Source of the DNA: Trypanosoma brucei
Lineage: Eukaryota
DNA length: 64,000 bases
Assembly (NCBI GenBank): GCA_000002445.1
Contig: AE017150.2
Coordinates: forward strand, 384,001-448,000
Direction: 5' to 3'
In this document: positions 3,550 through 30,687 of the stretch, one piece after another
How positions within the stretch are numbered: position 1 is the stretch's first letter
How the letters are laid out: every line of letters starts with the position of its first letter
Notes under the pieces: generated by a model
Database searches by the model: none
What the model saw: the letters and a program-made list of their open reading frames with translations, nothing else
What the model was told of the DNA's origin: nothing
Translations under genes and position numbers: made by a program

Positions 3550-4740
3550 TTACTTCCTCAGTGGTCTGGACAACCATTTTTGGTTCACCGCCTTATCAAT
3601 GGGACACACCTCAACGAAGCGTTTCAATGATAATTTCTTTCTCTTCGGGTTGTATAACCAAACCATTTGAGAGCGCAAATATTCCTTTGCTTGCTGGCGC
3701 CCATTCGGGGTCGCAAGCTGGCGATACCACGATAACACCCTCATAGACCTTTGCAGGCCCAGCTTCTCCCAATTGTTTGGTCCCGAATGGACAATGATGG
3801 AGGAGAAGTTTGCCTTGAGTGGGGCCCGGACAAACCACCTGGAGGTATAGTCAAGGGACATAATGCCTCTTCGTAGTAATAGTTTTTGGCTTACGTGCTG
3901 TGGTCTCGTGATGCTCCACATGAACACCACCACCCACATACTCTGATCGCACCACCACTTGTAGCTTTCTCTTTTGATGCTGAAGAATACTTTCAGGGCT
4001 TCTTTCAGCGCCCATACTCGTGCAATCGCGCCACCGCCATTGAGGTAGGCTTTCTTCACCCCACTGCCAGCGAGCCCTCCAGCACCTCCTTCGCTCGCCA
4101 GCTGCCTCATCTTCTCATACATATGTTCACAGCGCTTGTCACTTTTTTTGTCCTCATCCCCCAGCATAATATACGCTTGTGGAGCGTAACACCCCCTTTC
4201 GGTCGCAAAAATCAACGGGGAAGACATCACTCCCTGTAAGATGGCCGTTTCGCTGTATGCCTCTGGATTTCGTGGTGAACGCTGCAAGAAGGTCTGTATT
4301 TCCCTCTCCCTGAACTTTACTTCTGTAAAAAATGTGTCGGCACCATCAAACGCGACCACGATATCCTCATCCCGCATATTCCCCCTCCTGATATATTCCT
4401 CTATCCACGTCCACCTCCTAACATGCCCGTACCACCCCCCGTTCCCCACACTAACGACCGTTACATTGGTGAATAGGGAGCTAACCAACATTCTACACCA
4501 CCCCGGGGAAAATCTTGTCTGCGCCACGACGAAATGCACTTTGGCTACCAGCTCTCCACCAGGCCCTTTCGTGTCGTGCTGGTTATTTTTCAACAATACT
4601 GCTACCAAGCAAACGCTCAACAGCACCATGTTCCACACCACAATCGCTATCCCAACGCGGCATTCGAAATGGGCATCTTTTCCATTTTTTCTCTTCCTCA
4701 TATCCCTATAAAAGTGGAAAAACAGGTGATGCACACGCAC
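3550..4740 (-). CDS. Subtelomere-associated type-II membrane protein (ESAG3-like or glycosyltransferase-like; family not verified), intact 396-aa ORF; likely true start at internal Met (4701)
   Basis: The ORF is uninterrupted. It has a short basic N-tail (MRKRKNGKDAHFECR) followed by one hydrophobic anchor (IAIVVWNMVLLSVCLVAVLL) and a large downstream domain with a 'DEDIVVAFDGADTFF' acidic motif. A decayed paralogous fragment lies 0.7 kb upstream. Its position next to a VSG-like gene is typical of trypanosome subtelomeric gene families. Confidence 0.5.
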   Translation of the reverse strand: MRVHHLFFHFYRDMRKRKNGKDAHFECRVGIAIVVWNMVLLSVCLVAVLLKNNQHDTKGPGGELVAKVHFVVAQTRFSPGWCRMLVSSLFTNVTVVSVGNGGWYGHVRRWTWIEEYIRRGNMRDEDIVVAFDGADTFFTEVKFREREIQTFLQRSPRNPEAYSETAILQGVMSSPLIFATERGCYAPQAYIMLGDEDKKSDKRCEHMYEKMRQLASEGGAGGLAGSGVKKAYLNGGGAIARVWALKEALKVFFSIKRESYKWWCDQSMWVVVFMWSITRPQHVSQKLLLRRGIMSLDYTSRWFVRAPLKANFSSIIVHSGPNNWEKLGLQRSMRVLSWYRQLATPNGRQQAKEYLRSQMVWLYNPKRKKLSLKRFVEVCPIDKAVNQKWLSRPLRK

Positions 4741-9055: not shown

Positions 9056-10390
9056 TCATGGAAGGAAAAATAGCCACAACGGAACACTGATTTTGTCTGC
9101 TTGGCTTGCTAATGGCGGTCTTTTTATATCTATGCAGTTTCCTTCCCGTTTGTTGCAACCTGTGTGCGTACATTCTGCTTGACTTTCGCACTCACTGCAT
9201 TCAACGCCGGAGCTAGGACCCTTTTGCCCACGTCCCTTGTTACATGTTGTGCCATCTTTAAGTTGAGAGATTCCGGATCGGGGCATTTGGCTTAGTTTGC
9301 TTGTTTTTATACTCTCAACATTTCTCAGGATATCCTTCAATTTTTTCTCAATTTCTCTTAACTTATCTATCCTAGTAGCTGCTTGTTGCAATACCAGGAG
9401 CCAAGGGACCGCAGGGTTCTCATTACCTACCATCTCCGTTGGATATTGGACGCATTTTCCGTTACCTGGTTGCGTGTGCCCAGTGCATCCGTGCTGGGGC
9501 TCCCCGCTCGCTGCTCCGAGAAATGTTTTTGTACCTTCCTTCTGTGCTGTAGAACGTTTAAGGACCTCCAAAAAAACCTTAGTGGCGCGTGAGAGGGAAC
9601 TGCTGGATAGTTTCTCGTTGGTACCGATCGACTTGCATCTTTGGGCCAGATGTTTCCATCGAGTGTTCGATTGCTCTACTGGCTTCCATGGATCTTCATT
9701 TGCACCGGTGCTGCAGCCTTCGCAGCATGCCTGCTGCCGATCGTTCGGCATGGGAGAACCTCCGCATATGCACAACAAATCCACGATCAACGACTTTCCT
9801 GCCCACACACTTGGTTGTCCACCTTTTCCTCCACAAACTTCCACAGCTTCCAGGTGTTGCTTTATCATAACATCAGCTTTGTTCGACCCACTGAGTGCGT
9901 CACTTAAACTCTTGTTGATCGGGCTCATTTTCAGCTCCAGCCACAAATTGTTGTTTGTTTTCATGCACGTGTGCGCGTTTTCTACTGCTTCTTTTATTTT
10001 TTCCTTCCTTAGTATGTCGAAGTTCGCTTCAACCCACTGAATATACCGAGTCTTGTCACCTTTAAGTTTGGTTCCCGCTTCTTCCCAGAAGCTCCAGTAG
10101 CCTCCTCCCCCTCCACCTTCGCCTTGCCGGCCTACCTGGACATTTTCTACGTCTTCCGCCTCGGACAAACTTTGAAGCCCAACAGCCAAACCAATGGCTC
10201 CAATATGCCTCGCTGAGTCTTTGACGCTTTCTTCGAGTTGCTGCGTTTCCAGATCTTGGGAAAAGTTTATCATAGCACATAAGGCTCCAAACTCTTGTTC
10301 GTTCACCAGGGGCTCTCTCGCCCCCACTACACAACTTAACTGACCTATTACTGTCACCACTAAGGGAACCCAACACCCAGTCGCCTTCAT
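9056..10390 (-). CDS. Variant surface glycoprotein (VSG)-like gene, possibly atypical or pseudogenic
   Basis: The 444-aa ORF has an N-terminal signal peptide (MKATGCWVPLVVTVIGQLSCVVGA) and a long helical N-domain with sparse Cys. Its C-terminal domain is Cys-rich (CNKGRGQKGPSSGVECSECESQAECTHTGCNKREGNC) and ends in a hydrophobic GPI-signal-like tail 'DKISVPLWLFFLP', matching the VSG consensus ...PLWLAVLLF. The tail is shorter than canonical, and no 16-mer TGATATATTTTAACAC was found in the 3' flank. Confidence 0.6.
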   Translation of the reverse strand: MKATGCWVPLVVTVIGQLSCVVGAREPLVNEQEFGALCAMINFSQDLETQQLEESVKDSARHIGAIGLAVGLQSLSEAEDVENVQVGRQGEGGGGGGYWSFWEEAGTKLKGDKTRYIQWVEANFDILRKEKIKEAVENAHTCMKTNNNLWLELKMSPINKSLSDALSGSNKADVMIKQHLEAVEVCGGKGGQPSVWAGKSLIVDLLCICGGSPMPNDRQQACCEGCSTGANEDPWKPVEQSNTRWKHLAQRCKSIGTNEKLSSSSLSRATKVFLEVLKRSTAQKEGTKTFLGAASGEPQHGCTGHTQPGNGKCVQYPTEMVGNENPAVPWLLVLQQAATRIDKLREIEKKLKDILRNVESIKTSKLSQMPRSGISQLKDGTTCNKGRGQKGPSSGVECSECESQAECTHTGCNKREGNCIDIKRPPLASQADKISVPLWLFFLP

Positions 10391-14869: not shown

Positions 14870-17806
14870 TCAGCTCCCCGTGTGTGTACCACTCGGCCGA
14901 GTTCTTTCGTAGGGGAGTGGTGGAAAGGACTCCACCTGACGCCGGTTATATCTGCTAGGTGTGTAATCCAACGAAGTATTATAACGAACCGTTTCAGTCT
15001 CCACTACATTATTTTTAAGTTTTGGTAAGCCACCCTGTACCCTACTGGGCCCTTGCCTGAGATTGTTTTGGATTCCTCTTCCCGTTTCTGCGCGACTTAA
15101 CCCGAGACCACGCTGAGACCAGGGTTGTTGATCGTGCGTGTCTGCCTGTAGTTTCTGACGCATCAGCCGCGACCCCAACGTTGTTTCGGTCCCTGTCGAA
15201 ACTCTGTCACACCGTAAAGGATGGTGCAGCGTCGGTATTTGAGAACTTAGGGAAATCGGTTCATTCTTTAATTTGTACAACTTCCGTGGATCTACAGCCG
15301 CCACCTCCGTGACAAATGACGGTGGCTCCGGTCCACTCGAAGCCGCGGTACAATCCAGTGCTGCATTTGGAGAGCCGCTGTTCTTCGTATGCGCTTGGAC
15401 GAGAACGCGGATAATGTTACGAAACTCCGTGCGCTCCGCCTCGTACAATGCCAACCTCTCCTGTAAATCGTAGATATGCTCCATCAGTTTTTTCTCCAAT
15501 GCCGTCTCCTGCGTGCTGTGGAATTCCTGTTGCATTGTCTCAGACTCCGTAGCGAAGGCCTGCTGCCCTTCCCCCTCATCCGCTGCGAATTTCGGTGTGC
15601 TTCCCGGACGTACCACCGAATACGTGGCTGTCGACGCCTCACCGCAACCGTCACGTAGTTCCGTAAGGATTTCTTGCCTTACGGAGGCTGCTGCTTCTCT
15701 AGCCTTTGTTGTTATGGTTGAACACGCTTCATCCAAACTAACCGCGATTTCCTCGCGAAGCATCTTGCGCATGTCCACGAGAATTGCTGCGGTTTCTACA
15801 CTCCGGGCCCGGGGAGGTGAGGGAAAAATCATAGTGGGATCCTCGCGTCCTACCCTTCCTTCAATTTCCCCGGTAGATGACAGACGGCTGGTGGCCCGCG
15901 GCGGATGTGGTGACTGCCGAAGTCGTGTGGTTTTGTAGTCGCCTCGCGGGGCCTTAATGACCTTTTGAATCTCCGTTGCTTTCCTCATCTCACGATTTTT
16001 TAATGCTCTCATTTTCTTCTTGAGTAGTTCCTCATTTCTGCGCAGCATTTCTTCATTTCGCTGAAGGATTTCTTCGTTCCGCCTCAGCATATCCTCATTC
16101 TTCCGCTGCATATCCTCATTCTTCCGCTGCATCTCCTCATTTTTCTGTTGCATTTCCTCGTTCTTCTGGTGCAATTTCTCGTTCTTTTGGTGCATTTCCT
16201 CGTTTCTCCTGAACCTCTCCTCGTCGATCTCAAGCAAACTTTTGCTCCCACCGACAGCGTCATTGACTGTGATCCCCTTATTTCCGGCATCCTCCAGCAC
16301 TTCCTCACGTAATGGATAAGTTTTTTTGTCCTCCTCCGAGTCCTCTCGTGCATTTCCCTTGGGGATGTCTTCACTTTGTTTCGTCTCCTCAGCACCTTCT
16401 CTAGTTATGTCTGCTTCAACTGTCGCTGGCTTCACATCATCTTTATCTTCCGGTACGTCCTCACTGACCTTTAGGACATCAACAGTTTCCTTGAAGGCAA
16501 CCTCTTTTGGCTCTTTGTCATCTTCATCTTCATCTTCATCTGTTTCCTTCGGCACCTCCTCGACTTTTCCGGACCCCTCCCCTTCCATATCTAATGAACT
16601 TCCATCCTTCTGTGGAAACTCCACAGTTTGCTTGTGTGCTGCCCCAATTCTCACCGGTAGATCCTTCAGCCCCTTGCAGAGTCGCTTTCCCACCACTACA
16701 CTTCTATCTTTCTTTATTGCCCTTCTTCCTTTTCCAATACCCTCGCTGCTTCTAAGGGAGCCATCACTACTTCTACGCGCATCCGTATCTTGATGAAAAT
16801 ATTTGATCATACCTACTTCGGGTGTCAGCCTTTCCTCATGGATTTTTGGAACGTCGTCGCCGTCATCCTTCTGCTGCTTCGGGGTTTCTTCAACAACTAA
16901 ACTTTCTTCCTCTTCCTTCTTGTCGTCATTTGGGACCTCATCTCTTCCTCTGAGAGTTTCTTCCACGTTGGTTAACATATCCGCATTATGCCGAAGCATG
17001 CTCAGGTTACTTTTTAGCATATCCACATTACACTTCAGCATTTCTACACCGCTTTTCAGTATTTCCTCCTTATCCCTCGGTGTCTCTTCGTACGAGGTGA
17101 GCACATCCACATTTTGCTTCAGCACCTCTTCATCTTTCTTCAGCACTTCTTCGTTCATCTTTAGTGTCTCCTCAGTGCTTTTTGGCATCTCTCCAGCTTT
17201 TTTGAGAATCTCCTCGTTGTTTCTGAGCATGTCCGAAGTATTCTGTAGCATGTCAACGGCATTTTTAATCATTTCATCGACAACTTGTGCTGTATCCATG
17301 CTACCCTCAGAGGCTGCTATAGTACTGGCTTTAGTCCCTGGTCGCTCACTCACTGAAGTTTGCGAATCTAATGCACTTTCATCCCGCGCATCATCGCCGT
17401 ATTCGCGTCCAAAAGTAGACATAACATTTGTACCGCTTGTATCCCATGAGAATTGTTCCGTTGGCAACATTCTATTATCTGTTTGGGGGAGTGAACAAGC
17501 GCTACTTGTCAGAGCGGAGGAGGTTCTGTTCAGTACTGGTGTCGGTGTCGTCTGTTCAACATCACGTTGAGTTCTACTTGGAAAACTTCGCGGTTGTGAT
17601 GTGGCGCTTCGCAGCTGATGTCCATCTGAACATGGAGTTGCATTCCTTCTCACCTCGTCCCACACAATGTTCACACTTTGCTGCAATTCATTGAGGCGGC
17701 GGCTAATATGACTCCTCATGTTACGTAAATAAGACTCCAACTGAAAGCAATGCATGAGCGAGTCCGGAACGGGAACAAGTTCATCCATTTCGGGTTTCAT
17801 TGTCAT
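14870..17806 (-). CDS. Large repeat-containing hypothetical protein (978 aa) with two arrays of degenerate ~8-aa repeats, predicted coiled-coil
   Basis: The ORF is uninterrupted. Array 1 is 'NEEMHQKNEKLHQKNEEMQQKNEEMQRKNEDMQRKNEDMLRRNEEILQRNEEMLRRNEELLKK', encoded by 24-bp tandem DNA repeats at ~16028..16212. Array 2 is 'VDMLQNTSDMLRNNEEILKKAGEM...VEMLKCNVDMLKSNLSMLRHNADMLTNVEETLRG' at ~16968..17280. The flanks are acidic and Ser-rich. Confidence 0.7.
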   Translation of the reverse strand: MTMKPEMDELVPVPDSLMHCFQLESYLRNMRSHISRRLNELQQSVNIVWDEVRRNATPCSDGHQLRSATSQPRSFPSRTQRDVEQTTPTPVLNRTSSALTSSACSLPQTDNRMLPTEQFSWDTSGTNVMSTFGREYGDDARDESALDSQTSVSERPGTKASTIAASEGSMDTAQVVDEMIKNAVDMLQNTSDMLRNNEEILKKAGEMPKSTEETLKMNEEVLKKDEEVLKQNVDVLTSYEETPRDKEEILKSGVEMLKCNVDMLKSNLSMLRHNADMLTNVEETLRGRDEVPNDDKKEEEESLVVEETPKQQKDDGDDVPKIHEERLTPEVGMIKYFHQDTDARRSSDGSLRSSEGIGKGRRAIKKDRSVVVGKRLCKGLKDLPVRIGAAHKQTVEFPQKDGSSLDMEGEGSGKVEEVPKETDEDEDEDDKEPKEVAFKETVDVLKVSEDVPEDKDDVKPATVEADITREGAEETKQSEDIPKGNAREDSEEDKKTYPLREEVLEDAGNKGITVNDAVGGSKSLLEIDEERFRRNEEMHQKNEKLHQKNEEMQQKNEEMQRKNEDMQRKNEDMLRRNEEILQRNEEMLRRNEELLKKKMRALKNREMRKATEIQKVIKAPRGDYKTTRLRQSPHPPRATSRLSSTGEIEGRVGREDPTMIFPSPPRARSVETAAILVDMRKMLREEIAVSLDEACSTITTKAREAAASVRQEILTELRDGCGEASTATYSVVRPGSTPKFAADEGEGQQAFATESETMQQEFHSTQETALEKKLMEHIYDLQERLALYEAERTEFRNIIRVLVQAHTKNSGSPNAALDCTAASSGPEPPSFVTEVAAVDPRKLYKLKNEPISLSSQIPTLHHPLRCDRVSTGTETTLGSRLMRQKLQADTHDQQPWSQRGLGLSRAETGRGIQNNLRQGPSRVQGGLPKLKNNVVETETVRYNTSLDYTPSRYNRRQVESFPPLPYERTRPSGTHTGS
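16028..16212. repeat. Imperfect 24-bp tandem repeat array (~8 units) inside the CDS
   Basis: The unit is TTCCTCATTCTTCCGCTGCATATC-like and reiterates with point changes. It encodes the NEEMQRKN octad. Confidence 0.8.
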
Positions 17807-18934
17807 CGCGCCGTCTGGGAGTTTGTGGACGTTGACAACTTGCGTCGCGGTGTATCAGGTTTCGTGTTCGCCTTGTGTAAAAAAACAAAACAAAACAAAA
17901 CAAAACAACAACAATAACAACAACAACAGCAGTAAATACAAACACAAACGACCGTTACCCAAACGACGGCAGATTCAAAGAAGAAAAGGAAGAGGAGTGT
18001 GTGAGAGAGAAAAGGTGGAAAGAGTGAGACGCACTTTAAAAATAAAAATAAAAATAAATAAATAAATATATATATGTGCTACCCTAAACTATATTTAAAT
18101 ATGAAAGCAGCTTGCGACCTTTTGTTTTGTAGTTTTCTTTTTCGTGTGTGTGTGTGTGTTTGTTTGTTTGTTTCACTAGCCTTGTTTTGTATACTTTTGT
18201 AACAATATAATAAACGTGAAAAGTTTCTAAACCCCCTTTCTTTTCTTCTTTTTTTTTCCTCTTTTTGCTTTTGTCTTGGCTCCACGACACCCAAAACCGT
18301 TTATCGGCCCCGTGATGTCTGCAACTGTATTGATGTTAGTGAAACGAACGACCGAAAGAAGACGAATGCAAGAAAAGAATATATAAATACGAAGAAGATA
18401 AATAAATATAAAACACACACCTACACACGAACAGATAAGCAAATGACACAACAATGGAGGTATGACGGAGTTGCATTTGTAATGCATTCAAAGGGGAAAA
18501 AAAAACAAAAAGAGATATGCCCTTCTTTATGTAATAGCGCCAATTCGACACACTATTCACGCACACACACAAAAAAAAAACGCAAAGCAACAAAAAGAAA
18601 ATATAAAGGAAGAGATAGAAATACAGAATATACAGAGAGATACTTAATGAAAGCTCATTCAAAGTTATGAGAAATAAGAAGCAAAACATCCGGTGGTTGC
18701 CTCTGCTTCTTTTCTTCTTCTCTTTTTTTTTTTTTTACTATCCGTCCCTTGTTGAAAATTATAACTCCATTCACTGTATGAATTTTAGTCAGTTGCATGT
18801 GTTCTGCTAAAGCGATGTGATTTATGAAATGAAGAACTTCCCTTTTTTCCCTCTCTTTTTTTTTTATAAAAAAAGATTACCCGCATTTGGCTCCTCACGT
18901 TCATGCGTTAAAACCCTCCTTTTCGGATATAACG

Positions 18935-18935
18935 T

Positions 18936-18978
<43 letters not shown>
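18935..18978. repeat. Compound (CA)n(TA)n microsatellite
   Basis: ACACACACACACACACACACACACACATATATATATATATATA is visible in the sequence. Confidence 0.9.
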
Positions 18979-19882
18979 AAGTATATATGTTTGCTTCTTC
19001 AGTCTAACCTTAGCTTGCATTTATTCCTTAAATGGTCACTTGAGTGGCACGAAACATTTTCTTTAGAAAAGTGACTGGGAAGTCAAATGAAGAAAAAAAA
19101 AAAAGAAGAGGAACATTTTTTTTTCTTTTCTTTTCTTTAGAAGGGAAGTGTAGCAACACATCATTCGGTATATATATCATAAACATTTACATATGCTGGT
19201 TCCATTCCAGTAGCCTCAATGGTAAGTTAGAATAAGAAGGGAACTGAGAAATAGAGGGGGAGAAAAAAGAAGAAAGGGAGGAGAACAAACAATCCGACAA
19301 GCAAAAATAAGAAGGTAAGAACGAAACGGGAGGGAACGAAATGAAAACAAAACGAAGCAAAATGAGGGGCGGCAGCAAAAAAAAAAAAAAAGCGGTTACC
19401 ACCACTTCTTCTCAACGCATTTCAACAGAGACACCGGTGCTAAACATTACAAGTCACTTATATTCTTTTTTTTTTCCCCTCCTCCTCCTTCCTTTCTTTT
19501 TTTTTTTGCATAAAATTTACGTGCTCACAAAGCTCCTTTCGTATAATTTACCCGTCGCCTCTTACGACAACATGATTACCGGAAGCAAAGCAAGAAAAGG
19601 AGCAAAGGAAGGAAGAGGGGAAACAGAAGATCAGCACGTCCCAAGCAACATAAAAAAAAAAATGGAAAGAAAGAAAGGAAAGGAAGGAAAGAGAGCAAAA
19701 CACAAAACAAACGCTTTCCATAAACCTTCACAGCCCTTGAAGGTGTGGATAAAAGGAAAGACAAGTCGCCCATACGAACAAACACACAAGCACACACAAG
19801 TACGATCATACATATATGTACAAATACTTTGTTTTTATTATTATTATTATTTTCTCTTATAATAAAATAATAACCAAATGTA

Positions 19883-21244
19883 TTAATTACTGCTGCCGCT
19901 GCTCTCAAAGTCATCTTCATACTCATCACCGCCGCTCACGCGACCCGACGGTTTGTGAAATGACATTCGGCTTTGCGGCCGTTCCGAATTCTCACAAATT
20001 GGTGGGATGCTCGGCGTCTTCTCTGATCGGGTTGAAACACTGCTCGGCTGAAGAAGCGGTCGCCGCGCCAGCGCACTTTTGGGCCGTTGCGGTGACATTT
20101 TTTGTTCAGCCAACGCATCCGTCACACCTTTGCTCTGCTCCAACCAAGAATCCAATTCGGAGGTCGCGACGCTAGTTTTTGCATTAGTGTTATTATTATT
20201 ATTATTGTTATTATTGTTATAATTATTATTGGTACTACCGCTGCTACAACCGTCACCACCACTCCCACTGGTGGATGCACCCATGGACCTTTTCTTGGCG
20301 CTGATGGCCTTCTGCACTATTTCCTCACCAAATATCTGTTTATAATATTTGGACTCCAGACAACTGAGTGGAACAGTGGAAAGATTGTTCTGGACGTAGG
20401 AACTACGCAGTGCGCGCCTAAGTGTTGGTCGTGTTACCGCGGATTTCTGTAAAAATGAATGAACCAAATCAATGAGAGGCGAGGAGTAACCATCTTCCGG
20501 TGTGATGAGTTGATACTCTCCGCGCGAGATCATCCGCATGAGTGTTGGTGCTGATGTGGAGTTGAAGGGGCGTTTCAGCATCATGAGTTCATACAAGGTG
20601 ACGCCGAGACTCCATATATCAGCCTTTCCATCATATGCCCGCTCCTCACAAAGTTCAGGCGCCATGTAAAGCGGCGAGCCACACGCCATCTTCGCCACCC
20701 CGCCAAGCTGATCGAGCACTACCGACACGCCAAAATCTCCTATACGAACGGTTCCGTCTTCGAAAATGAAGATGTTCTGTGGCTTAATGTCCCTGTGGAG
20801 GGTGCGCTGGTCAACATGCAGGAAATTCAATCCAACCAACATCTGAATCATAAGTGAGGCTACAAAACTCTCTTCTTCCTTCTTGTGACGGTACTGGAGC
20901 TGTTCAATACGCTGCCCCAAATCACCACCGTTGCAAAATTCCATGATGATGTACACCATGAACTTACCGTCGTGGTAGCGGTCGAGGAATTGCACAATGT
21001 TGGGGTGTCCCATAGAGCGGCGAAGTATACTCACCTCCATATCCAATGCCTTCATCTCTTCATCTTTTTTCATTGTTTGCATATCCACATCCTTCACAAC
21101 AACAAAACGATCACCACCTCCCTGCGCCGTTTCGTCCGCCTGCTCGTAAAGCGTTGCGCAACCGAAGCTTCCCTTCCCGAGTATGCGCTGACGCTTAAGT
21201 TTCCATATTCTGTTTTCGCCACGAAGCTCAAGGAGATCAGCCAT
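19883..21244 (-). CDS. NEK-family serine/threonine protein kinase
   Basis: The product has kinase subdomains GKGSFGC (Gly loop), VVVK, HRDIKPQNIF, DFG and SPLYMAPE. Its C-terminal tail contains an Asn-rich low-complexity run (NNNYNNNNNNNNNNTN). The tracked ORF starts further 5' at a GTG (ME KKKKK...). The first in-frame ATG is MADLLELRG at 21244, taken here as the start. Confidence 0.8.
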   Translation of the reverse strand: MADLLELRGENRIWKLKRQRILGKGSFGCATLYEQADETAQGGGDRFVVVKDVDMQTMKKDEEMKALDMEVSILRRSMGHPNIVQFLDRYHDGKFMVYIIMEFCNGGDLGQRIEQLQYRHKKEEESFVASLMIQMLVGLNFLHVDQRTLHRDIKPQNIFIFEDGTVRIGDFGVSVVLDQLGGVAKMACGSPLYMAPELCEERAYDGKADIWSLGVTLYELMMLKRPFNSTSAPTLMRMISRGEYQLITPEDGYSSPLIDLVHSFLQKSAVTRPTLRRALRSSYVQNNLSTVPLSCLESKYYKQIFGEEIVQKAISAKKRSMGASTSGSGGDGCSSGSTNNNYNNNNNNNNNNTNAKTSVATSELDSWLEQSKGVTDALAEQKMSPQRPKSALARRPLLQPSSVSTRSEKTPSIPPICENSERPQSRMSFHKPSGRVSGGDEYEDDFESSGSSN

Positions 21245-21865
21245 AAGTGAAGGGGGGATTTTACCTGAGCTACTACACCTATATGCAACGAGTGCAGGAG
21301 ATGTGTGCGTATTTGTATATGCCGCTTGTGTCTGTTCTTGTTCTTTTTTTTTCTTCTTTTCCACTTTCTTGGCTCTTATTTCTGTTTAAAATATTTAATA
21401 GAGCTCTATACTGATAAATATAAATACAGATAAATGTATACGTGTATTGTGTGACTATACGGCTGATTGTTAAAGTAACGAAGAGGGAAGGGAACACAAC
21501 CGGTCTTGTGGTTTGAGTTCACTTATAATCCCTATGTAAGTATCTTCTGCTTTGTTTGTAATAGAAATTTATTGTTGATTTATCTATTATTTATTTGTTT
21601 CCTTCCCCTTCCGCTACACCGTCTTTCCTTAGACGTCACTTTCGCACAAAAATGAGTGTAATTTAACGTCGTGTTGCGGATTCTTGTTTTCGTTGCTTCT
21701 GGCGTTTGTTTGTTTGTTTGCTTTTTTTTTTTTTAAAATGCAAATATCTGATACTCGACACACCGTAGTGATTGCGTTGTCTTTCACCACTTGCTTTTCC
21801 TTTTCCTTTTTAATATATTTTTTCTTTGTAATTTCCGCTAACAGTAGGACAATACAATATAAGCA

Positions 21866-21892
<27 letters not shown>
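21866..21892. repeat. (TA)n microsatellite
   Basis: An ATATAT... run in an intergenic spacer. Confidence 0.9.
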
Positions 21893-21898
<6 letters not shown>

Positions 21899-22887
21899 GT
21901 GAGGGTGATCATTCAACAAAGTGGGAGAGGAGGATGAAGGTAAATGACGGAGGTGGTTAACAAGAAAAAGCGAAAAGAAGTCAGGAGAGAAAAACGTAAA
22001 TAAAGAAAAGAACAAGAGAGAGAGAGAACAGAACAATGAATCACGATGGCAGGTGGCAGCAGTGCTTGAAAAGAACTAAAACTGTTAAGGAAACAACACA
22101 CAGACACACACACACATATATATATATATATGTATATATTACTATATATTTTGTTAAACTGCCGTGACGGTGTGGAAAAGACATGAAGGAGGACGGGAAG
22201 AGGGGGAAACTACTGATGCCTTATTGGTAGCGAATCGCCATTACAAATTAGTGAATTTCACTCTCCTTCTTTCCCCAAGGTTCGATAATGGCGAAAGGAG
22301 AGAGTTCAAAAAAAAAAAAGTAATAAAATTAACTCAATACGCAATTTTCAGACCCACATGCATATGTATATAAATATACTTGTGTTTTTGCATTATGTAT
22401 TCATCACTTTTATTTCGCAGCTGCAAATGGGGATGTGCAACCGCACCTGAGCTTGAGATGAAACCTCTAAACCAGTGGACCAATATTAATTAACTAAACG
22501 GCGGCATGTGATCCCGAGGGGAAGTGACAAAGGGGAGGAAAGGATAGAGGAGGGAGAGAGAGGGAGGGAAAAACAACAACAAAACAAAACAAAACAAAAC
22601 GAAACCAAGATAAAATCAAACATGACGAGGGAGAAGTGCGTGTAGAGGGCAATATTGCACTGAAAAAAATGTTTCCCACCCCAACAGCCTTTGCCTTACT
22701 TCTCTTTTCTTTTTTTGGTCGTTGCAAACACAGCAACAATCACAAAGTTGCAACTGGGAATCACTGCCTCTTCTCCATTTCCCTCTTCAATTAGTCATGG
22801 GAGAAGAGCATGCAGCAACGGCATGAATGTGTAAATAACTACCCACCTTAAGCACCGAATATGCGATGGAGGAACTGCAGGGGCGAT

Positions 22888-22929
<42 letters not shown>
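22888..22929. repeat. Compound (CA)n(TA)n microsatellite
   Basis: CACACACACACACACACATATATATATATATATATATG is visible in the sequence. Confidence 0.9.
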
Positions 22930-23313
22930 GTGCAATAGAAGGTGGGGCATTGTCATTACTTCTATGCTTTCCGCTTTCTCCATCTCCATCTCCATCTCCT
23001 CCATGCCTCTCTTCATTTTAATTTATTTCAGCTTAAATTCAATTCACTCCCACCCCACACTTCGTACGCTACGTTCATACTTACCGTGACAACCCCTTCC
23101 CTCTTCCCAACCTCAGTTTTGTACTTCTTTTCCCCCAAAGGTCCACTCCACTACATGTGACAAACCACTACCACTACCACATCACCAGCAGCAGCAACAA
23201 CAACAACAACAACGCCAAGCGCCACCATTTCCATTTCCATCTTCTCCATTTTTCCCTTTCCTTTTCCTTTTTTTTTTAAAAAAAAAACAAAAACCAAATT
23301 TTTCAACGTCTGT

Positions 23314-24006
23314 TTAGCAGCAACCGCCTTCCCGCCAACCGGCCCCTTCGCCGTCTTTTTGTTGCTGCGAAGGCGTAAGAAGAAACGGGTCTCGTCGCTT
23401 ACCCAACGGCACCGTTCCCTTCTCACAGATTTCCACTACGGGAATGGCCTCCGCCACCTTCCTAAAAAGTGATTTTACATTCGTCCCAGTTTTTGCACTG
23501 ACTTCAACAAAAATAAGCCGGTTTTCATCCGCGCGTTTCTGCGCCTCATCTGCGCTTACTTCCCTTTTTTCCTGCACATCACATTTGTTTCCCACAAGCG
23601 CAATTATGACATCATCCCCTCGCGCCGCCCGGACCTCATCTATCCATTTGAATGTACTGAGAAAAGAAGAACGAGATGTGATGTCGTACACCACAACGGT
23701 GGCTGCACTGTTTCGTATATAACTTGGAATGAGTGAACGAAACCGCTCCTGTCCAGCCGTATCCCACACATGCAGTCGTGTCGCCCGGTTATTTATATGC
23801 AACGTTTTGGAAAAGAAATCAATACCAATGGTTGCCTGATACTGTTGGTCAAATGTATCATACATAAAACGTGTAATGAGGCTCGTCTTCCCCACAGCCT
23901 GATCGCCGAGAAGAACAATTTTATGTTTAACCACCGGTGCGGTTTCAGCAGTGACGCCGTCCCCTCCCTTTTTTGTGGATGCAACTGGCGCTGAGTTTGT
24001 TTCCAT
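23314..24006 (-). CDS. RAB6: Rab6-like small GTPase
   Basis: The ATG at 24006 was verified. The protein contains G1 GDQAVGKTS, switch [11 protein letters not shown]3 [13 protein letters not shown] and ESAK. Its hypervariable tail ends in -GGCC, a double geranylgeranylation motif. The best family-level resemblance is to Rab6 ([36 protein letters not shown]). Confidence 0.8.
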
Positions 24007-24514
24007 TCGATTCCTTTAAATTGCCTATGAAGAAATCACACACACACACACACACACACGCACCCCACTTGTTGCTGTTGCACAAAGTCGCTAACTTTTT
24101 CCTTTTTTATTTTTTACCTTTATTTATTTATTTATTTCTTTTTATCTTTTTTTTTGTTGTTCTATTCTACTCTATTCTGCTTTTTTCTTTCCTCTTAGCG
24201 TATATATATATATATATATATATTGAAATTATATATTCAACAATCGATACAACAAACAAACAAACAACAATTAAATATAAGTAAATATTTTTATTTATAT
24301 TTCTCGACGGTACCGATATGTGTATATGTATGTTCTTTTTTTTTTAAAAAAAAAGAATATTATTTTCCCCCTTTTCAACCCCCCAAATATTAGCAAGGGT
24401 AATAAACACAACAACAAAACACTAATAAAAATAAAACTTTTCTGCCGCTTGTACTAAATGGTGGCTGCCAACACGTTTCAACAGCCAACTCGCTTACACA
24501 CACACACACACACA

Positions 24515-24545
24515 CAAAAGAAAAAGAAAAAAAAGGAAAATACAA
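24515..24545 (-). promoter_or_regulatory. Candidate polypyrimidine tract (mRNA sense) for trans-splicing of the Rab6 mRNA
   Basis: The A/G-rich plus strand (AAAAGAAAAAGAAAAAAAAGGAAAA) gives a CT-rich tract on the minus-sense transcript ~500 nt upstream of the Rab6 ATG. AG dinucleotides follow it. It fits the kinetoplastid SL-addition signal pattern and is inferred only. Confidence 0.3.
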
Positions 24546-25056
24546 ACGAATTTGTGTAAATAATAAGATGAGGGAAAAGAATATATAGTAAAATATGCAT
24601 ATATATATATATATTTATTTATTTATTTATAGGTATGAATGTATATTCTTATTTATTTTTAAATGTAAATGAAATACTCCCACTCCCGCTTGCACTTTGT
24701 TTTGTGTAATTCTTTTTATTTTATTGTTTTATTTTGCGGCGAACCGATGACTGCTGCAAGTACATTTCATTACTGTTGTGAAATAATACAAACAAAATGT
24801 ACCCAAATAAACATGTTTTTTGTTTTTTTTTTTGCAAAATAAGTATTCATGTGAGTTTAAAAGGACGACACGGTACTTGAATTAATTTACTCACGCATTT
24901 CCATTAACTGAGCGCCATCCACTTGCCTCCTCCCTCCCCCCCCTCAATAAAACGACAACAACAAGAAAATAATAACAATAACAATAATATAAAATTGGGG
25001 GATGGGGGAAAAAAACATAAATAAATAAATAAATAAAGACACGCAAACATTTCCGT

Positions 25057-25383
25057 TTACTTCCCCTGCGCATCTGCGCGTCTCATGGCGTCTTGTTGTT
25101 GCCAATTCTCCACATTTTCACGGAATTCCACAACAAATTCATCAAAATCATGCCGCCTCGCGTCTTTATTTGCCATGACGGATTCATATAAGTGTGTTTT
25201 ACACGCAAATATTTCCACAATGGAACCCAATGCAAAACCCAATGCAAAAATACCCGACATTCGAATCGGATACGGTAATGTGCGATAATATCGAATAAAA
25301 CGTAAACTTCGCGTCCCATCACGGAGAAATGGATCGCCTTTACGTTTTGTTGCGCGTGCCATCACATTTTCAACATATGACAT
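25057..25383 (-). CDS. Small hypothetical membrane protein (108 aa, single TM with glycine-zipper-like GIFALGFALGS)
   Basis: It is the only ORF of any length in a 3.6-kb interval. It is co-oriented with the polycistron, has a basic N-terminus and one hydrophobic helix. It was not recognised as any known family. Confidence 0.35.
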   Translation of the reverse strand: MSYVENVMARATKRKGDPFLRDGTRSLRFIRYYRTLPYPIRMSGIFALGFALGSIVEIFACKTHLYESVMANKDARRHDFDEFVVEFRENVENWQQQDAMRRADAQGK

Positions 25384-27631
25384 GACACGTCTTTGCCTCT
25401 ACTACTGTTATTATTATTATTATTATTACTGGTAACTTTTGTGAAGTCGTTAAAATGTTGTTGTTTTATATATTATTCTCTACACTACTACTTCTTTTTT
25501 TTTTTTTTTGGGAAAATGGCTGACGCCAACAACTAAATTTTAGTTGACAACGCGTCGCCCAGAGTTCTCAGCTAGTGGAACATTAAAATGACAAACAAAT
25601 AAATAATTAAATAAATAATTAATTAATTAATGAAATAGAGAATGAAAAGAAAAAAAAAGTACATTTTCAAATTTATAAATGTCATTATATTGCAGATAAA
25701 AAGTCACAAATATAAACACATTTCGCATTTATTTATTTACAGGTGTTTAAATGGTGTTGTTGACGCAAGTTAATGGTACCCATTCGTGCATGATGATACA
25801 AAAAGAAAAAAAAAAGAACCTGTGTTTGTGTTTGTGTGAATACGTTTGTGTTTTGTTTTTGTGGTGTGTTGCTCAAATACATTACGGTATTGCAAAAAAA
25901 AAAAACAAACAACAACACAAACTCACATTCACTCAAATACGTAACGAATAGCGTACAAAGAGAGAAAAAAAGAAAAAAAAGAAAAGAAAAAAGATGATAG
26001 AGAAAACTAAAGGCAAAAAAAAGGGGTGGTGAAGGAGTGAATGAATGAAATAAAGTGAAAAGAAATCGAAAAGGAATTTATTGTCATCATTACCTCAACA
26101 GTAACAGTAACAACAATAGCAATAATAATAATAATAATTGTTGTTGTTGTTGCTTTATTTCCTTTCCTAAAGGATGGGAAAAAAACACAAGACGGAAACA
26201 AAACAGCCCTTTGCCAGGAAAAAAAAAAGAAAAAAGAAAAAGAAAAAGATGTATAAATTAAGGTTTAACTCGTGAAATGAAACGTATGATCAATGCGCGG
26301 CTACACATACATACAAATATGTATAAATATGTGTAAATATATAAATGTGTGCAAGAATGTGCATTGATTTTAAGTTTCCTTCACTTCTTCCTTATTTTTC
26401 TCTTTTCTCCTTTTTTGTTTCTTTTTAATTCGTAGCAACCAACATGTTTGCGTCGCATAAAATTTCTTTTTTTCTTCCTTTTTTTTTTTTGCGCACAAAT
26501 GTGTGGTGGAGGTTGAGGGAGCCAAAAAAGAAAGAAAAAAAACTAAAGAAATTCCCGCAGCAACACACCAGCAAAGAAGTGCGAAACGCAACCAAAATAA
26601 TAACAATAATAGTGGTAAAAAAAAAAAAACAAGAAAACAAACGAAAAAAAAAAACGAGGGGGTGAATGTATGAGGATAAGTGTGTGTGTGTGTGTGTGGG
26701 GCTCGGCTGTTTCTTCAAGGAAAAACTTTTTTCTCTTTGTATTATTTTTATTTTTTTTTATTTACGTTGAAGCAAATCATTGACTTCATCAGAGTCTTCT
26801 TTTTTTTTTTTTTTGGTTGCTCTTTTTTTTTTTTTAAAAAAATTTGCTCCCTTTCTCCATCCCTTTCTTCTTTTTCTTATTTCACCTGTTGTTTCTTCAC
26901 CTTTCAGCATCCATCACTTTTTCCCCCTAACCTTCCTGCTTCTCAGTACTAATAGTAATTATTATTATTAATAATAATAATCATCATCAGTCAATTTCCC
27001 TTCTGCGCTGCATGAACATACGCATTGTTTGGAGCCTAACATCCGCTACGGTACATATATAAATATATTTATATATGTATATATTTCCCCCTTTTCTTCT
27101 TTTTTCTTCTTGTAATCTCTTCTTTTCTTCTTTTCTTTTTTTTTTTACTCTTTTTAATAGATACATGCACACACAGGTACGCGGACACAAAATTACGCAA
27201 ACACGGACACAAAAAAAAAAAACCACGCATACATACGCACAATCACCAGCGCCACATGTATCCGTGCGCGCATCTTCCGTTACAATTATAAATACATCTG
27301 TACATCAATTTTTTTTTCTTCTTTATACACTCACTTACACTCACACTTACAGACATAGGCGCACAAACGCGTGTGTCTGTTTTGCATCACTAAAGCAGCG
27401 GGCAAAAGGAAAAGAGAGTGCCATTCCTAACCTAACATAACCTAACTACTTACTTACTTTCTTTTTTTTCTTTTTTCTTTTTCTTTTCCTTTCCTTTCCT
27501 TTTGCCTCTTTTGCTTTTGTTTTCATTTTTTTTTTACACATTTTACTGAGCTCCAATAAATCCTTCCTTCATCTTTCCTTCCCATTCTACATTCGTCTAC
27601 GGTATGGGAAGATGAAGGAAGTCGAATGAGT

Positions 27632-28696
27632 TTAAATGTATTGCTCCAAATGCTCATACAAGTTTTTGCGGCATCTTTCAATAAGATTCTCAAACACCGC
27701 ATCCGGTACATACGTGGAAGAGGAACGGTATTCATATACCGCCGTGTCAAAAGCTGTCAAGGAGCCGTTGTCATTTGCTTCAATGATTTTACGGACCAGT
27801 CTGTTTTCCTTCCCGTGCTGAAAATCCCGTTCCTCCTCCTGTAGAGCATGAAACCGCTTACGTGCGTAGTATAGGGAGTCAAAGTAACGGTCATTGTCAC
27901 CAAATCCTTCAGCCAACATACATAAGAGTGAAAGGAAGAATTGTCGAGTCTTTGGCCGACCACGCGGGGCATATGCCGTTTCTTCAACGAACAGTTTGGA
28001 TGCCTCCGTGTATTTCTTTAGCTCTACCGTCAAGGTGGTGATGCGCTCCATGCAGCCACGGCTAAAGGAGGACATAAAACTCCTGTTGCCGTAAAGTTCA
28101 ATGGCTTCCCTGTACAACTCAATCGCCCGTTCGGGTTCACCAAGGCGATCCTCCAGTAGAAGTGCCGAATCACGCTTGCAGCGGGCGGCTTGAAAGAAGA
28201 ATCCCCCTTTCTTTAGAGTCTCGGAAATCTTTTGCATTAAGTTCACAGCCAGAAGAGGTTCCACCAACTGCATGTTCTCCACAGCCAGTGAGAGGGCAGT
28301 GGTTGTTTCTTCCTCGTCTTTGAAAGCCCGCGTGATGATACTCGCGTGAAAGAAGGCACGTGCCGCTTCAGCGGGGTGACCACAACTTGCGAAGAGTCCA
28401 CCCGCCTCATTGAAAGCTTCACAGGCACCCAACCAATCCTCGCATTTCGAAAGCCCCCGCGACACATCCGTTTTAGCTTTTTCAAATATCTTTTCTGCCT
28501 CCTGCAGGCGCCCCCGAATATATTCCTCATCAAATCTGTTGGGTACCACACGTGCGTTGCTGGAAGGACAGCGGACAAGTTCCAGCGCGTCTGTGCATTC
28601 TACGGCTTCCTCCGATGTCATTAATTGATTCTTTGTTGTTGTTACGGTTGCTCTGTCTTTTTGTCTTTCCTTTCCTTTGGGTGTCTTTGTGTTCAC
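27632..28696 (-). CDS. SNAP-family (soluble NSF attachment protein-like) TPR protein, possibly gamma-SNAP-like
   Basis: The 354-aa product is all-helical. It has SNAP-like blocks (AIELYREAIELYGNRSF vs AIEIYTDMGRF; DNDRYFDSLYYARKRF vs KYSAKDYFFKAALCHF) and a C-terminal acidic/aromatic segment. The assignment is by remembered family resemblance only. Confidence 0.5.
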   Translation of the reverse strand: MNTKTPKGKERQKDRATVTTTKNQLMTSEEAVECTDALELVRCPSSNARVVPNRFDEEYIRGRLQEAEKIFEKAKTDVSRGLSKCEDWLGACEAFNEAGGLFASCGHPAEAARAFFHASIITRAFKDEEETTTALSLAVENMQLVEPLLAVNLMQKISETLKKGGFFFQAARCKRDSALLLEDRLGEPERAIELYREAIELYGNRSFMSSFSRGCMERITTLTVELKKYTEASKLFVEETAYAPRGRPKTRQFFLSLLCMLAEGFGDNDRYFDSLYYARKRFHALQEEERDFQHGKENRLVRKIIEANDNGSLTAFDTAVYEYRSSSTYVPDAVFENLIERCRKNLYEHLEQYI

Positions 28697-29665
28697 AAAA
28701 TTTGCGTGTTTGATATATAAATATATATTTCTGACTACTTCCCTCCGCTGCTACCACCTCCTCTTGACTGGTTCCCTTCAACTGTAGTTACCTCAGGAAA
28801 TTAAACCTTCAGTTCACTTTCAGGGAGAGCTCTAATGTATATATGCGTGTAAAAATATACACACCAAGTATTCCTATGGCTTGTGAAAGTAAGCGTACGA
28901 GCTTCGGGAGCGAGAGCGAGAGTAAAAAAGCAGGAAAAAAGGAAAGAAAAAAAAAAGAGCGAGGACAGGGAAAATGAGTAGAAATACAACGCTAAACTGA
29001 AAGTGTGAATGTCAGTGCCAAAAAAACCGATAAGAGGTAAGAGCACAAGACGGTGAAGGACAGTAGAGAACAATATAGACTGAGGTGTTCAGCACAAAAC
29101 CTCACGATTTGACTTCAACTCGCAGAGTCCGTTCTCGGAAACCAACACGAAACCCATGCTTTCTGCTTCTTCATTCTCCTTTTCCCCTCCTCCATCTTTT
29201 TGAACGTCTGGCGCCTTATTAATTACTCCGCACGCATTACCGCAAGCACAGACACATTTATATATAAATGTGTGTTTGTGTTTAAGTTCGTGTGGTCGTT
29301 AAACTGTGTGTGTGTGTGTGTGTGTATGTGAAGGGGGGAGAAACCGCAACTCGCCCCCGCGCACGACCTTCTCACTTCATTAATTCCACTGAATTCCCAC
29401 AGTGGTGCAACCGTTTCACCTTTTTTTTTTTTTGGCGCACCAGCGGCTAAAATTCGCACGCGTTACGTCCTTTCGCTTTCCTCCTTTTCATATCACCAAT
29501 GTGATGGCCAACGCCTTTTAGGATGCGTCCGCACGGCTTCACAGCCCAATAAGCACGAATGGCGAGTAGGAAACCCATTACGTATTCGTATAAATACGTG
29601 TGTCCAGATGTACACCGCTCGATTAACCAACCGAAACCTCGTTCAAAACTCACTCACTTGCTTAC

Positions 29666-30436: not shown

Positions 30437-30687
30437 GAGAGTTACACTGATATGGGGATTAGCAACGTGTGGAAACAACAAAATAATAATAATCACCCCC
30501 GCAAGAGAGAGCCCGAGAGGGCTAAGAGGCTTTGATGTTGTTTTTGTTTTTATCCTAGTCTTGTTTTTAGAAGCGCTTGACACGCCCCTTATGTGTATGA
30601 AAATAAGGGACACCCCTGCCTTATGAGGGGTCAGTCACTTAATGTTGGCAGTTATACTCCAGAAGTGAAGATAACATACAAATAAAT

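Follow-up and report, generated by a model that had tools for sequence, protein, structure and literature searches.

A probable flagellar-skeleton protein of Trypanosoma brucei carries two lineage-specific heptad arrays in a family found across the genus

The window analyzed here, a 64,000-nucleotide stretch of DNA whose source organism was identified as Trypanosoma brucei by exact-sequence match, carries a single minus-strand open reading frame (ORF) of 978 codons at 14870..17806, as the sequence-only reading had reported. Exact-sequence look-up identified this ORF as Tb927.2.2090. The same reading had allowed for a pseudogene whose ORF is interrupted in other strains, but the ORF is intact in all eight T. 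brucei-group sequences compared, including those from gambiense, equiperdum, and Logan assemblies. Furthermore, synonymous changes outnumber non-synonymous ones in comparisons with other subspecies (10:7 and 10:4). Tb927.2.2090 is a genuine T. brucei gene and is expressed. Its earlier description as the terminal gene of a polycistron holds approximately: among the syntenic core genes it comes last, but two more ORFs follow it on the same strand, one related to VSG genes (9056..10390) and one ESAG3-like (3550..4701). The features of the gene, from its 5′ to its 3′ end, are as follows.

14870..17806 (-): complete coding sequence, 978 amino acids plus stop, Tb927.2.2090 (XP_951523.1 / Q586J3) of T. 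brucei brucei TREU927 chromosome 2; from the ORF list and exact-sequence look-up
17642..17785 (-): conserved block 1, N-terminal helix beginning DELVPVPDSLMHCFQLESYLRN, aa 8-55; aligned across six Trypanosoma species, AF2 helix 15-55 with pLDDT up to 79
17300..17311 (-): phosphosites S166 and S169 (SEGS), just upstream of array A (PMC11408851, supplementary file 3)
16931..17281 (-): array A, about 17 degenerate heptads of the xVDMLKS type, aa 176-292; from lag-7 identity and the unit table
16232..16930 (-): acidic linker between the arrays, aa 293-525; predicted disordered, pLDDT ~30
16883..16921 (-): SIM-like element KKEEEESLVVEET / EEEESLVVEETP, aa 298-309, in the inter-array linker; from a motif scan
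16518..16541 (-): hexamer microsatellite of the GAAGAT type, encoding an (E/D) tract at about aa 422-429; Tandem Repeats Finder (TRF), period 6, 4 copies
15995..16225 (-): array B, about 10-11 heptads of the NEEMQRK type, aa 528-604; from lag-7 identity and TRF period 21
16091..16132 (-): perfect tandem duplication of 2 x 21 bp, ATGCAGCGGAAGAATGAGGAT, encoding MQRKNED twice; from protein and DNA alignments
15641..15811 (-): conserved block 2, helix, aa ~666-722; from alignments and AF2 with alignment, pLDDT ~80-92
15380..15565 (-): conserved block 3, helix, aa 748-809; from the alignment and AF2 with alignment
15398..15502 (-): core of block 3, LEKKLMEHIYDLQERLALYEAERTEFRNIIRVLV, with the invariant Y-E-A-E-R-x-E-F-R; AF2 pLDDT 87-97
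14903..14935 (-): conserved block 4, C-terminal motif VESFPPLPYER, aa 958-968; from the alignment

The database product name, SUMO-interacting motif-containing protein, was set aside as a functional clue, being a generic motif-based label that is also attached to the distinct genes Tb927.4.4180 and Tb927.8.8160; the motif scan detected one SIM-like element in Tb927.2.2090, with SUMO binding only putative. Pfam contains no family for this protein or for three of its orthologues, and a PDB profile search returned nothing under E = 0.35. The gene is named in the main text of no paper found in our literature search, which likewise recovered no individual experiment on the protein, and a search of supplementary files from the PFR-assembly paper, the TrypTag paper, and the TrypTag preprint did not turn up its identifier.

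Both internal repeat arrays are far above chance and lie close to where they had been predicted from sequence. Array A, previously placed at about 16968..17280, extends over 16931..17281 and is thus some 37 bp longer, while array B, previously placed at about 16028..16212, spans 15995..16225 in our analysis. Lag-7 residue identity is 0.33 in array A (shuffled mean 0.08, z = 10.1) and 0.59 in array B (shuffled mean 0.12, z = 13.1; 2000 shuffles each), and the register is unbroken across 17 and 11 units, respectively. The octad, or 24-bp, period proposed earlier has to be replaced by one of 7 residues and 21 bp. Protein identity at lag 8 is at background (A 0.09, B 0.125), and DNA identity reaches 0.50 (A) and 0.69 (B) at lag 21 but only 0.29 and 0.40 at lag 24. 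TRF independently called period 21 at 16028-16205 and 17110-17161, with scores of 55-147 and 77-86% matches. The string NEEMQRKN is one 7-residue unit followed by the residue that opens the next unit.

The consensus of array A is x-[V/E]-[E/D]-[M/V/I/T]-L-[K/R]-x, with Leu replaced by Pro in three units, and that of array B is N-E-E-M-(L/Q)-(R/Q)-(K/R). Although these had been taken for two different repeat types, a position matrix trained on either array recognizes the other in a single register, with 12 of 15 and eight of nine units above the 99th percentile of the null, which makes the two arrays versions of a single motif, N-E-E-(M/V/I)-L-(K/R)-x. The intervening linker (aa 293-525) is acidic as described, with 64 D/E against 40 K/R and a net charge of -24, but it is not Ser-rich (S+T = 11%); it also contains 11 Pro and 19 Gly. 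Seven single relic motifs, [ED][ED][VIT][PL]K, are scattered through it where about one would be expected by chance, a rough estimate from a threshold of 0.5% per position.

AF2 assigned pLDDT below 50 to 653 of the 978 residues, leaving roughly two thirds of the chain with a prediction of disorder, and the two models obtained (pTM 0.26 and 0.23) both consist of isolated helices and disorder. Array B is contained in a single predicted helix of 93 residues (aa 525-617; 15956..16234; pLDDT ~82-95), and array A is modeled as helices 172-204, 209-238, and 243-288 (pLDDT 51-76) broken at the Pro units; these array models come from single-sequence runs, which favor long helices for any charged heptad. 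Charged single alpha-helices (CSAH or ER-K segments) have been described in myosin-6, myosin-10, caldesmon, and other proteins. Array B is a candidate of this kind, with its long predicted helix free of Pro and Gly, its content of 52% D/E/K/R with a net charge of about zero, and a 7-residue alternation of two acidic and then two basic residues, which yields 15 E/D(i) to K/R(i+4) pairs, or 0.16 per residue. It is less charged than classical ER/K helices, and its heptads each keep an Asn alongside one or two apolar positions (M, L); LIVMFW residues make up 23% of the array.

In contrast to its "T. brucei-specific" label, which is wrong, Tb927.2.2090 has orthologues across the genus. Exhaustive phmmer searches recovered proteins from T. 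congolense (CCD14921.1, E = 4e-31), T. vivax (CCC46602.1 and CCC46791.1), T. theileri (XP_028881350.1), T. cruzi (XP_803322.1), T. c. marinkellei, and T. conorhini, with E-values from 4e-31 to about 7e-6, and a profile search added T. melophagium. Synteny, compared for T. congolense only, confirmed one of these: the order and relative strand of RNase PH, SNAP, Ras/Rab, kinase, and orthologue match those in the window from 30613 down to 14870. Given that exhaustive phmmer did find orthologues, we disregarded negative results from word-index homology searches, in which the full-length protein found only its own cluster and the C-terminal 373 aa found nothing, not even itself, and from a profile search of the same type with our alignment, which returned three members only. 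Most of the 202 phmmer matches involve array A or B alone in unrelated organisms, among them the grass Paspalum, an Omnitrophota bacterium, and a 783-aa Logan protein with 14-aa NEELQAKNDGLxKQ repeats; these were rejected as compositional or repeat matches rather than homologues. From the sequences searched so far, the family appears confined to the genus Trypanosoma; it has no Pfam domain.

What the orthologues share with Tb927.2.2090 are the four conserved blocks. The best-matching phmmer segments in the proteins of T. vivax, T. cruzi, and T. theileri fall in block 3, which contains the sole invariant columns (E771, L781, E783, Y788-R792, E794-R796, and I798) in an alignment of eight sequences from seven Trypanosoma taxa. 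The motif ESxPPLPYER is present at the C terminus in all full-length orthologues, and the conserved helices reach AF2 pLDDT values of 80-97 when the alignment is used. The orthologues are shorter, however, at 406-694 aa, and are missing both heptad arrays. Lag-7 periodicity exceeded its own null in no orthologue from the seven other Trypanosoma taxa, and individual heptad units in them were not above chance. T. congolense does have a three-unit relic, SVSALKS-SVELLRG-SLSIPKS, that none of 1000 shuffles exceeded. This was the only clearly significant outcome among 14 tests; array-B-like signals reached P = 0.002-0.006 in T. theileri, T. melophagium, and T. conorhini, which is borderline for that many tests.

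The DNA of the arrays points to an old amplification. Mean pairwise identity between units is 0.51 in array A and 0.69 in array B, and by codon position it is 0.67/0.54/0.33 (A) and 0.80/0.77/0.49 (B). Proportions of synonymous differences between units, pS, are 0.80 and 0.90, compared with 0.77 for random in-frame chunks of the same coding sequence, whereas pN is only 0.41 (A) and 0.21 (B), compared with 0.73 for such chunks. Because synonymous sites are saturated while the residue pattern has been kept, we interpret the 21-bp DNA periodicity as a by-product of selection on the peptide. The tandem repeats had been called prime candidates for length variation between strains, which overstates the case in view of this saturation and their near-constant length. 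Length polymorphism does exist: TREU927 has exactly one extra heptad, in that one 21-bp copy of the perfect duplication at 16091..16132 is absent in all seven other T. brucei-group sequences, as checked by protein alignment of the eight sequences and by DNA alignment with gambiense and equiperdum. But array A is constant in length among the eight sequences, and array B, in this small sample, is identical in seven, with the one extra unit in TREU927. The microsatellite at 16518..16541 is a second length-variable site, with indels of 6-12 bp relative to gambiense and equiperdum. We attribute the near length-invariance of the arrays beside a VSG/ESAG3 islet to a peptide repeat that is under selection and whose DNA copies diverged long ago.

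The earlier guess of a cytoskeletal or flagellar protein agrees with two published proteomic data sets, on which the flagellar assignment rests. Tb927.2.2090 is a curated hyperLOPIT marker for "flagellum 1" (axoneme and paraflagellar rod; PMC10361982, Supplementary Data 5), a set whose markers were required to be common to bloodstream and procyclic stages (PMC10361982). It is also present in the detergent-insoluble DRC1-APEX2 axonemal proximity proteome (PMC8141408, Table S1), a list of 697 proteins of which only about 75% are flagellar by TrypTag (PMC8141408).

The explanation that we consider probable is that Tb927.2.2090 is a flagellar-skeleton protein of a genus-wide family, in which heptad arrays of the T. 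brucei lineage form rods within a flexible linker. It would belong to the detergent-insoluble skeleton of the flagellum (axoneme and/or paraflagellar rod), with the four conserved blocks, namely the N-terminal helix, the two long helices, and the C-terminal ESxPPLPYER, carrying an ancestral docking or oligomerization function. Blocks 1 and 2 are separated by a fast-evolving, acidic region, predicted to be disordered, in which, in the T. brucei lineage, the motif N-E-E-(M/V/I)-L-(K/R)-x was amplified as two arrays. Array B, with its approximately 11 units, may form one unbroken charged helix of ~93 residues, or ~14 nm, whose E(i)-K/R(i+4) pattern would suit either a stiff single alpha-helix or a coiled coil that is weak and non-canonical, and the approximately 17 units of array A may form three amphipathic helical segments broken at the proline-containing units. 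These helices could serve as rigid spacers or interaction rods inside a flexible, phosphorylated linker. Since synonymous sites between units are saturated and the residue pattern is kept, the amplification is presumably old, and slippage would now be rare, as in the single perfect 21-bp duplication of TREU927.

The long coiled-coil or fibrous protein envisaged from sequence alone, here taken as a canonical two-stranded rod formed by the repeats, is a less favored alternative that we regard as unlikely but worth weighing. The arrays share with canonical coiled coils an exact 7-residue period, predicted helices (a confident long one for array B), and a cytoskeletal context, in that the protein fractionates with the flagellar skeleton, and array A is apolar at heptad positions 2 and 5, an a/d-like spacing with a mean occupancy of 0.63. 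Yet the arrays account for only ~196 of 978 residues, about 20% of a largely disordered protein, and neither has a heptad register with apolar residues at both core positions. Apolar positions in the arrays are adjacent (heptad 4 and 5) rather than a/d-spaced, with Asn between them on the helical wheel. Array B has one consistently apolar position, its best a/d pair reaches 0.50, and nine of 10 units place the Asn between the two apolar wheel positions; array A is interrupted by proline in three units, and Pfam and PDB yielded no match to a coiled-coil family. The arrays might instead be low-complexity expansions that are functionally neutral, generated by slippage, tolerated within a disordered linker, and without a role of their own. 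This we consider improbable, even though the arrays occur in no orthologue from seven other Trypanosoma taxa, occupy the region where the protein is least conserved, and neighbor an acidic microsatellite that is likewise length-variable: with pN at 0.21-0.41 and pS at the random level, the residue pattern was held long after the DNA copies diverged, the register continues without a break through both arrays, and T. brucei subspecies show almost no variation in the arrays. Nevertheless, the arrays may be dispensable, given that other species do without them, and the preserved pattern could stem partly from composition bias rather than function.

A tandem-repeat B-cell antigen similar to GM6 or MARP, with recombinogenic DNA repeats and strain-variable copy number, is very unlikely. 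Like GM6-type antigens (PMC3808341), Tb927.2.2090 is invariant and non-VSG, is associated with the flagellum, carries internal tandem repeats, and is expressed in bloodstream and procyclic forms (by the marker criterion of PMC10361982), and TREU927 does differ from other strains by one unit. However, its units are short and degenerate, 7 aa instead of tens of residues (68 aa in GM6; PMC3808341), and neither array consists of the long runs of near-identical DNA repeats expected of trypanosomatid tandem-repeat antigens: unit identity and TRF scores are low and synonymous sites are saturated. Among the few sequences compared, copy number is almost fixed, with array lengths identical in seven of eight sequences and array A never varying, and our literature search found neither serological evidence nor any record of antigenicity.

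A bolder form of our preferred explanation is that the arrays are a structural innovation of the T. brucei lineage, in which an ancestral flagellar docking protein of Trypanosoma gained a stiff, charge-stabilized helical "ruler" of ~14 nm together with a segmented amphipathic rod. We offer this as speculation, with the odds well against it. If true, axoneme-paraflagellar-rod spacing or mechanics would be altered specifically in the Trypanozoon clade, and TREU927, with its one-heptad allele, would carry a natural variant that differs by ~1 nm in length.

Tb927.2.2090 is an ordinary kind of feature that would not surprise a trypanosome cell biologist, and the value of the present findings is modest and lies mainly in annotation. 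The period is corrected to heptads and both arrays are shown to belong to one motif family. The arrays are also a clean case in which selection has held a peptide repeat well beyond the divergence of its DNA copies. Behind the labels "T. brucei spp.-specific" and "hypothetical" stands a genus-wide, syntenic family whose four sharply conserved blocks could seed a new domain model, and aa 174-605 provide a defined deletion target for asking what role lineage-specific helical inserts play in a flagellar-skeleton protein.

The minus-strand ORF at 14870..17806 (978 codons) proved identical at every residue to Tb927.2.2090 (XP_951523.1; Q586J3) of T. b. brucei TREU927 chromosome 2 in an exact-sequence look-up, and is deposited as 'hypothetical protein'. 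All large ORFs of the window with a Pfam match lie on the minus strand, and the genes that set the context of Tb927.2.2090 are these:

63296-63985, minus strand: SF3A2 (Prp11) homologue (Pfam)
49365-62204, minus strand: 4279-aa PI3/PI4-kinase plus FATC protein (PIKK; Pfam)
43699-47358, minus strand: exportin-T/Xpo1-like protein (Pfam)
Core genes of the window, minus strand: histone deacetylase, RNase PH, SNAP, Rab6 and protein kinase (Pfam)
9056..10390, minus strand: VSG-related ORF of 444 aa, XP_951521.1 (Pfam VSG_B)
3550..4701, minus strand: ESAG3-like ORF, XP_951520.1

The shared orientation of the PIKK, exportin-T/Xpo1-like and SF3A2 genes is in line with a single long transcription unit. 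Three sizeable ORFs without a Pfam match (36517-39636, 40198-41169 and 41903-43069, all minus strand) were also seen, two of which carry the database name 'hypothetical protein, conserved' (XP_951531.1, XP_951533.1). Tb927.2.2090 is the final core gene; after some 4.5 kb the VSG-related and then the ESAG3-like ORF follow it in the same orientation. The same VSG-related gene comes after the T. b. gambiense orthologue, and the VSG/ESAG3 pair looks like a conserved, chromosome-internal islet, not a fast-changing array. Among gambiense, T. equiperdum and two further T. brucei VSG records, the length of the VSG-related protein does not change.

As the sequence-only reading had proposed, the protein contains two internal repeat arrays: array A (16931..17281; aa 176-292; about 17 degenerate heptads) and array B (15995..16225; aa 528-604; about 10-11 heptads). 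Their period, previously taken as eight residues or 24 bp, is in fact seven residues or 21 bp. Residue autocorrelation over the whole protein peaks at lags 7, 14, 21 and 28, with lag 8 at background. Lag-7 identity was 0.33 in array A (aa 174-299) against 0.081 +/- 0.025 after shuffling (z = 10.1), and 0.59 in array B (aa 526-605) against 0.119 +/- 0.036 (z = 13.1); lag-8 identity was 0.09 and 0.125, respectively. At the DNA level, identity was 0.50 (A) and 0.69 (B) at lag 21, and 0.29 (A) and 0.40 (B) at lag 24. At 16028-16205, Tandem Repeats Finder gave no period other than 21 and its multiple 63; at 17110-17161 it gave period 21 together with an overlapping row of period 11. Scores were low (44-147) at both sites. 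Read in one register, the units are:

Array A (first units): AVDMLQN, TSDMLRN, NEEILKK, AGEMPKS, TEETLKM, NEEVLKK, followed by further units
Array B: NEEMHQK, NEKLHQK, NEEMQQK, NEEMQRK, NEDMQRK, NEDMLRR, NEEILQR, NEEMLRR, NEELLKK

A position matrix trained on array B placed 12 of 15 array A units beyond the 99th percentile of the shuffled null, and the A-trained matrix did so for 8 of 9 array B units; in both directions, one register of seven works. Given this mutual recognition, both arrays consist of diverged versions of a single motif, N-E-E-(M/V/I)-L-(K/R)-x, and are not two repeat types. The acidic linker between them carries seven isolated motif matches, against about one expected by our estimate, mostly with Pro for Leu (VEETPKQ, VEEVPKE, SEDIPKG).

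Identity between units at the three codon positions was 0.67/0.54/0.33 in array A and 0.80/0.77/0.49 in array B. We counted synonymous and nonsynonymous differences for every pair of units, by a Nei-Gojobori-type method:

Divergence between repeat units and control chunks
Array A units: pS 0.80, pN 0.41
Array B units: pS 0.90, pN 0.21
Random in-frame 7-codon chunks, same CDS (control): pS 0.77, pN 0.73

Because synonymous sites have diverged like unrelated codons while residues are kept, the DNA periodicity only mirrors a peptide repeat under constraint and does not mark a young, recombinogenic array. Array B pS exceeds the 0.77 of random chunks, as if neighbouring units shun common codons; this excess could reflect chance or selection against slippage. 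Against this background of old repeats one event stands out: at 16091..16132, TREU927 carries two perfect copies of a 21-bp unit (ATGCAGCGGAAGAATGAGGAT, encoding MQRKNED). The seven further T. brucei-group sequences, from T. b. gambiense DAL972, T. b. equiperdum, T. equiperdum OVI (a fragment) and four Logan assemblies, all have the unit once. Length also varies, by 6-12 bp, at the GAAGAT microsatellite coding for a D/E tract (16518..16541), and array A shows no length difference among the T. brucei-group sequences compared. The anticipated strain length polymorphism thus survives only in minimal form, as one 21-bp unit of array B and the microsatellite. The ORF is intact in every T. brucei-group sequence compared, with none of the interruptions expected of a pseudogene; over 2.9 kb it differs by 17 substitutions from gambiense and 14 from equiperdum, mostly synonymous.

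The gambiense record labels the protein 'T. brucei spp.-specific'. A word-index search seemed to agree, but it was unreliable: the C-terminal half missed the query's own cluster and the profile missed known members. Exhaustive phmmer with Tb927.2.2090 returned 202 matches at E <= 1e-3. Most were discarded as matches to the array B repeat only, in unrelated organisms; a coherent subset also covers the non-repetitive C-terminal part, and we reject the label on the strength of these orthologues:

T. congolense CCD14921.1 (phmmer, E = 4e-31, query aa 454-969)
T. vivax CCC46602.1 and CCC46791.1 (phmmer)
T. theileri XP_028881350.1 (phmmer)
T. cruzi XP_803322.1 and EKG08445.1 (phmmer)
T. c. marinkellei EKF26647.1 (phmmer)
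T. conorhini XP_029223188.1 (phmmer)
T. melophagium member (profile search)

With this single T. brucei query, phmmer detected no relatives beyond Trypanosoma; neither the protein nor the three orthologues compared with Pfam has a family there, and no PDB relative was found. The window (14870-30613) and T. congolense CAEQ01001700.1 (1-12085) share one order of genes, running RNase PH, SNAP, Rab, kinase and then Tb927.2.2090 or its counterpart, which makes CCD14921.1 the positional orthologue. Beyond it the T. congolense locus holds small unannotated ORFs only, so that Tb927.2.2090 marks a synteny boundary. Of the two T. vivax Y486 members (P0011 and P0017), one shares the ESFPPLPYER ending with T. 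brucei and T. congolense. The second resembles T. cruzi and T. theileri in carrying ESLPPLPYER plus an ANQEAYAxYVT motif, a type that T. brucei may have lost. The family alignment defines four conserved blocks:

Block 1: aa 8-55
Block 2: aa ~668-715
Block 3: aa 769-803, with all invariant columns (E771, L781, E783, YEAER 788-792, EFR 794-796, I798)
Block 4: C-terminal VES(F/L)PPLPYER

No orthologue shows heptad periodicity above its own shuffled null: within 42-aa windows, the highest lag-7 identity reached is 0.20-0.29 in orthologues versus 0.77 in T. brucei. T. congolense nevertheless has three consecutive in-register array-A-like units at aa 231-251 (SVSALKS-SVELLRG-SLSIPKS), with a summed score reached by 0 of 1000 shuffles, and charged helices aligning with array B in T. 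theileri, T. melophagium and T. conorhini give borderline signals (P = 0.002-0.006 over 14 tests). It follows that short seeds were expanded into the arrays within the T. brucei lineage, where this protein of the whole genus is least conserved.

Single-sequence AF2 gave a mean pLDDT of 44.9, with 653 of 978 residues below 50, and the models are isolated helices (pTM ~0.25):

aa 15-55: helix
aa 172-204, 209-238 and 243-288: array A helices, pLDDT ~51-76, breaking exactly at Pro-containing units
aa 525-617: array B plus C-terminal extension, pLDDT ~82-95
aa 670-722 and 748-809: helices, pLDDT 80-97 when a 7-sequence alignment was given

In the aligned run, the tail is still disordered apart from the terminal motif. 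Array B is 52% charged (net charge +2), lacks Pro and Gly, and has 15 E/D(i)-K/R(i+4) pairs; only position 4 of its heptad is always apolar, against 44% of units for position 5, and Asn occupies position 1. Apolar occupancy in array A is 0.80 at position 4, 0.87 at position 5 and 0.40, thus partial, at position 2. Plotted on a helical wheel with 3.5 residues per turn, positions 4, 1 and 5 are adjacent (our geometry from sequence), which leaves a thin apolar stripe centred on Asn. A charge-stabilised single helix or weak non-canonical coiled coil would fit the arrays better than a classical fibrous rod.

In the papers searched, Tb927.2.2090 is named in no main text, only in supplements. It is a 'flagellum 1' hyperLOPIT marker, among those common to bloodstream and procyclic forms, which were picked from literature and GO-CC annotation guided by fractionation-profile clustering (PMC10361982). 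It also appears in Table S1 of the axonemal DRC1-APEX2 proximity proteome, detergent-insoluble pellet (PMC8141408). Phosphosites S166 and S169, just ahead of array A, were quantified under the product name 'SUMO-interacting motif-containing protein' (PMC11408851). That name is also on the distinct genes Tb927.4.4180 and Tb927.8.8160, and its only possible basis here is the sole SIM-like element, EEEESLVVEETP; we set it aside as a generic motif label that does not denote a family.

We consider it probable that Tb927.2.2090 is a Trypanosoma-specific flagellar-skeleton protein with conserved docking parts and T. brucei-lineage helical spacer modules. The conserved helices and C-terminal motif would supply docking, and the variable, acidic, phosphorylated centre has gained two helical heptad modules in the T. 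brucei lineage, which may serve as stiff spacers or interaction rods. The long coiled-coil or fibrous protein first predicted is a less likely reading, since the best a/d pair reaches an apolar occupancy of only 0.63 in array A and 0.50 in array B and two-thirds of the protein is predicted to be disordered. Neutral low-complexity expansion appears still less probable, because pN between units is low while pS is saturated. That the protein is a variable tandem-repeat antigen comparable to GM6 (PMC3808341) is very unlikely, given its degenerate units and near-fixed copy number.

The finding is genuine but unremarkable: the gene was already known and annotated, its helical repeat has a short period, and its compartment is one where repeat-bearing helical proteins such as GM6 are familiar. 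What our analysis adds is a corrected period, the unification of the two arrays, a remedy for the 'species-specific' label, four defined family blocks, a single-heptad TREU927 allele, and evidence for an old, constrained peptide repeat.
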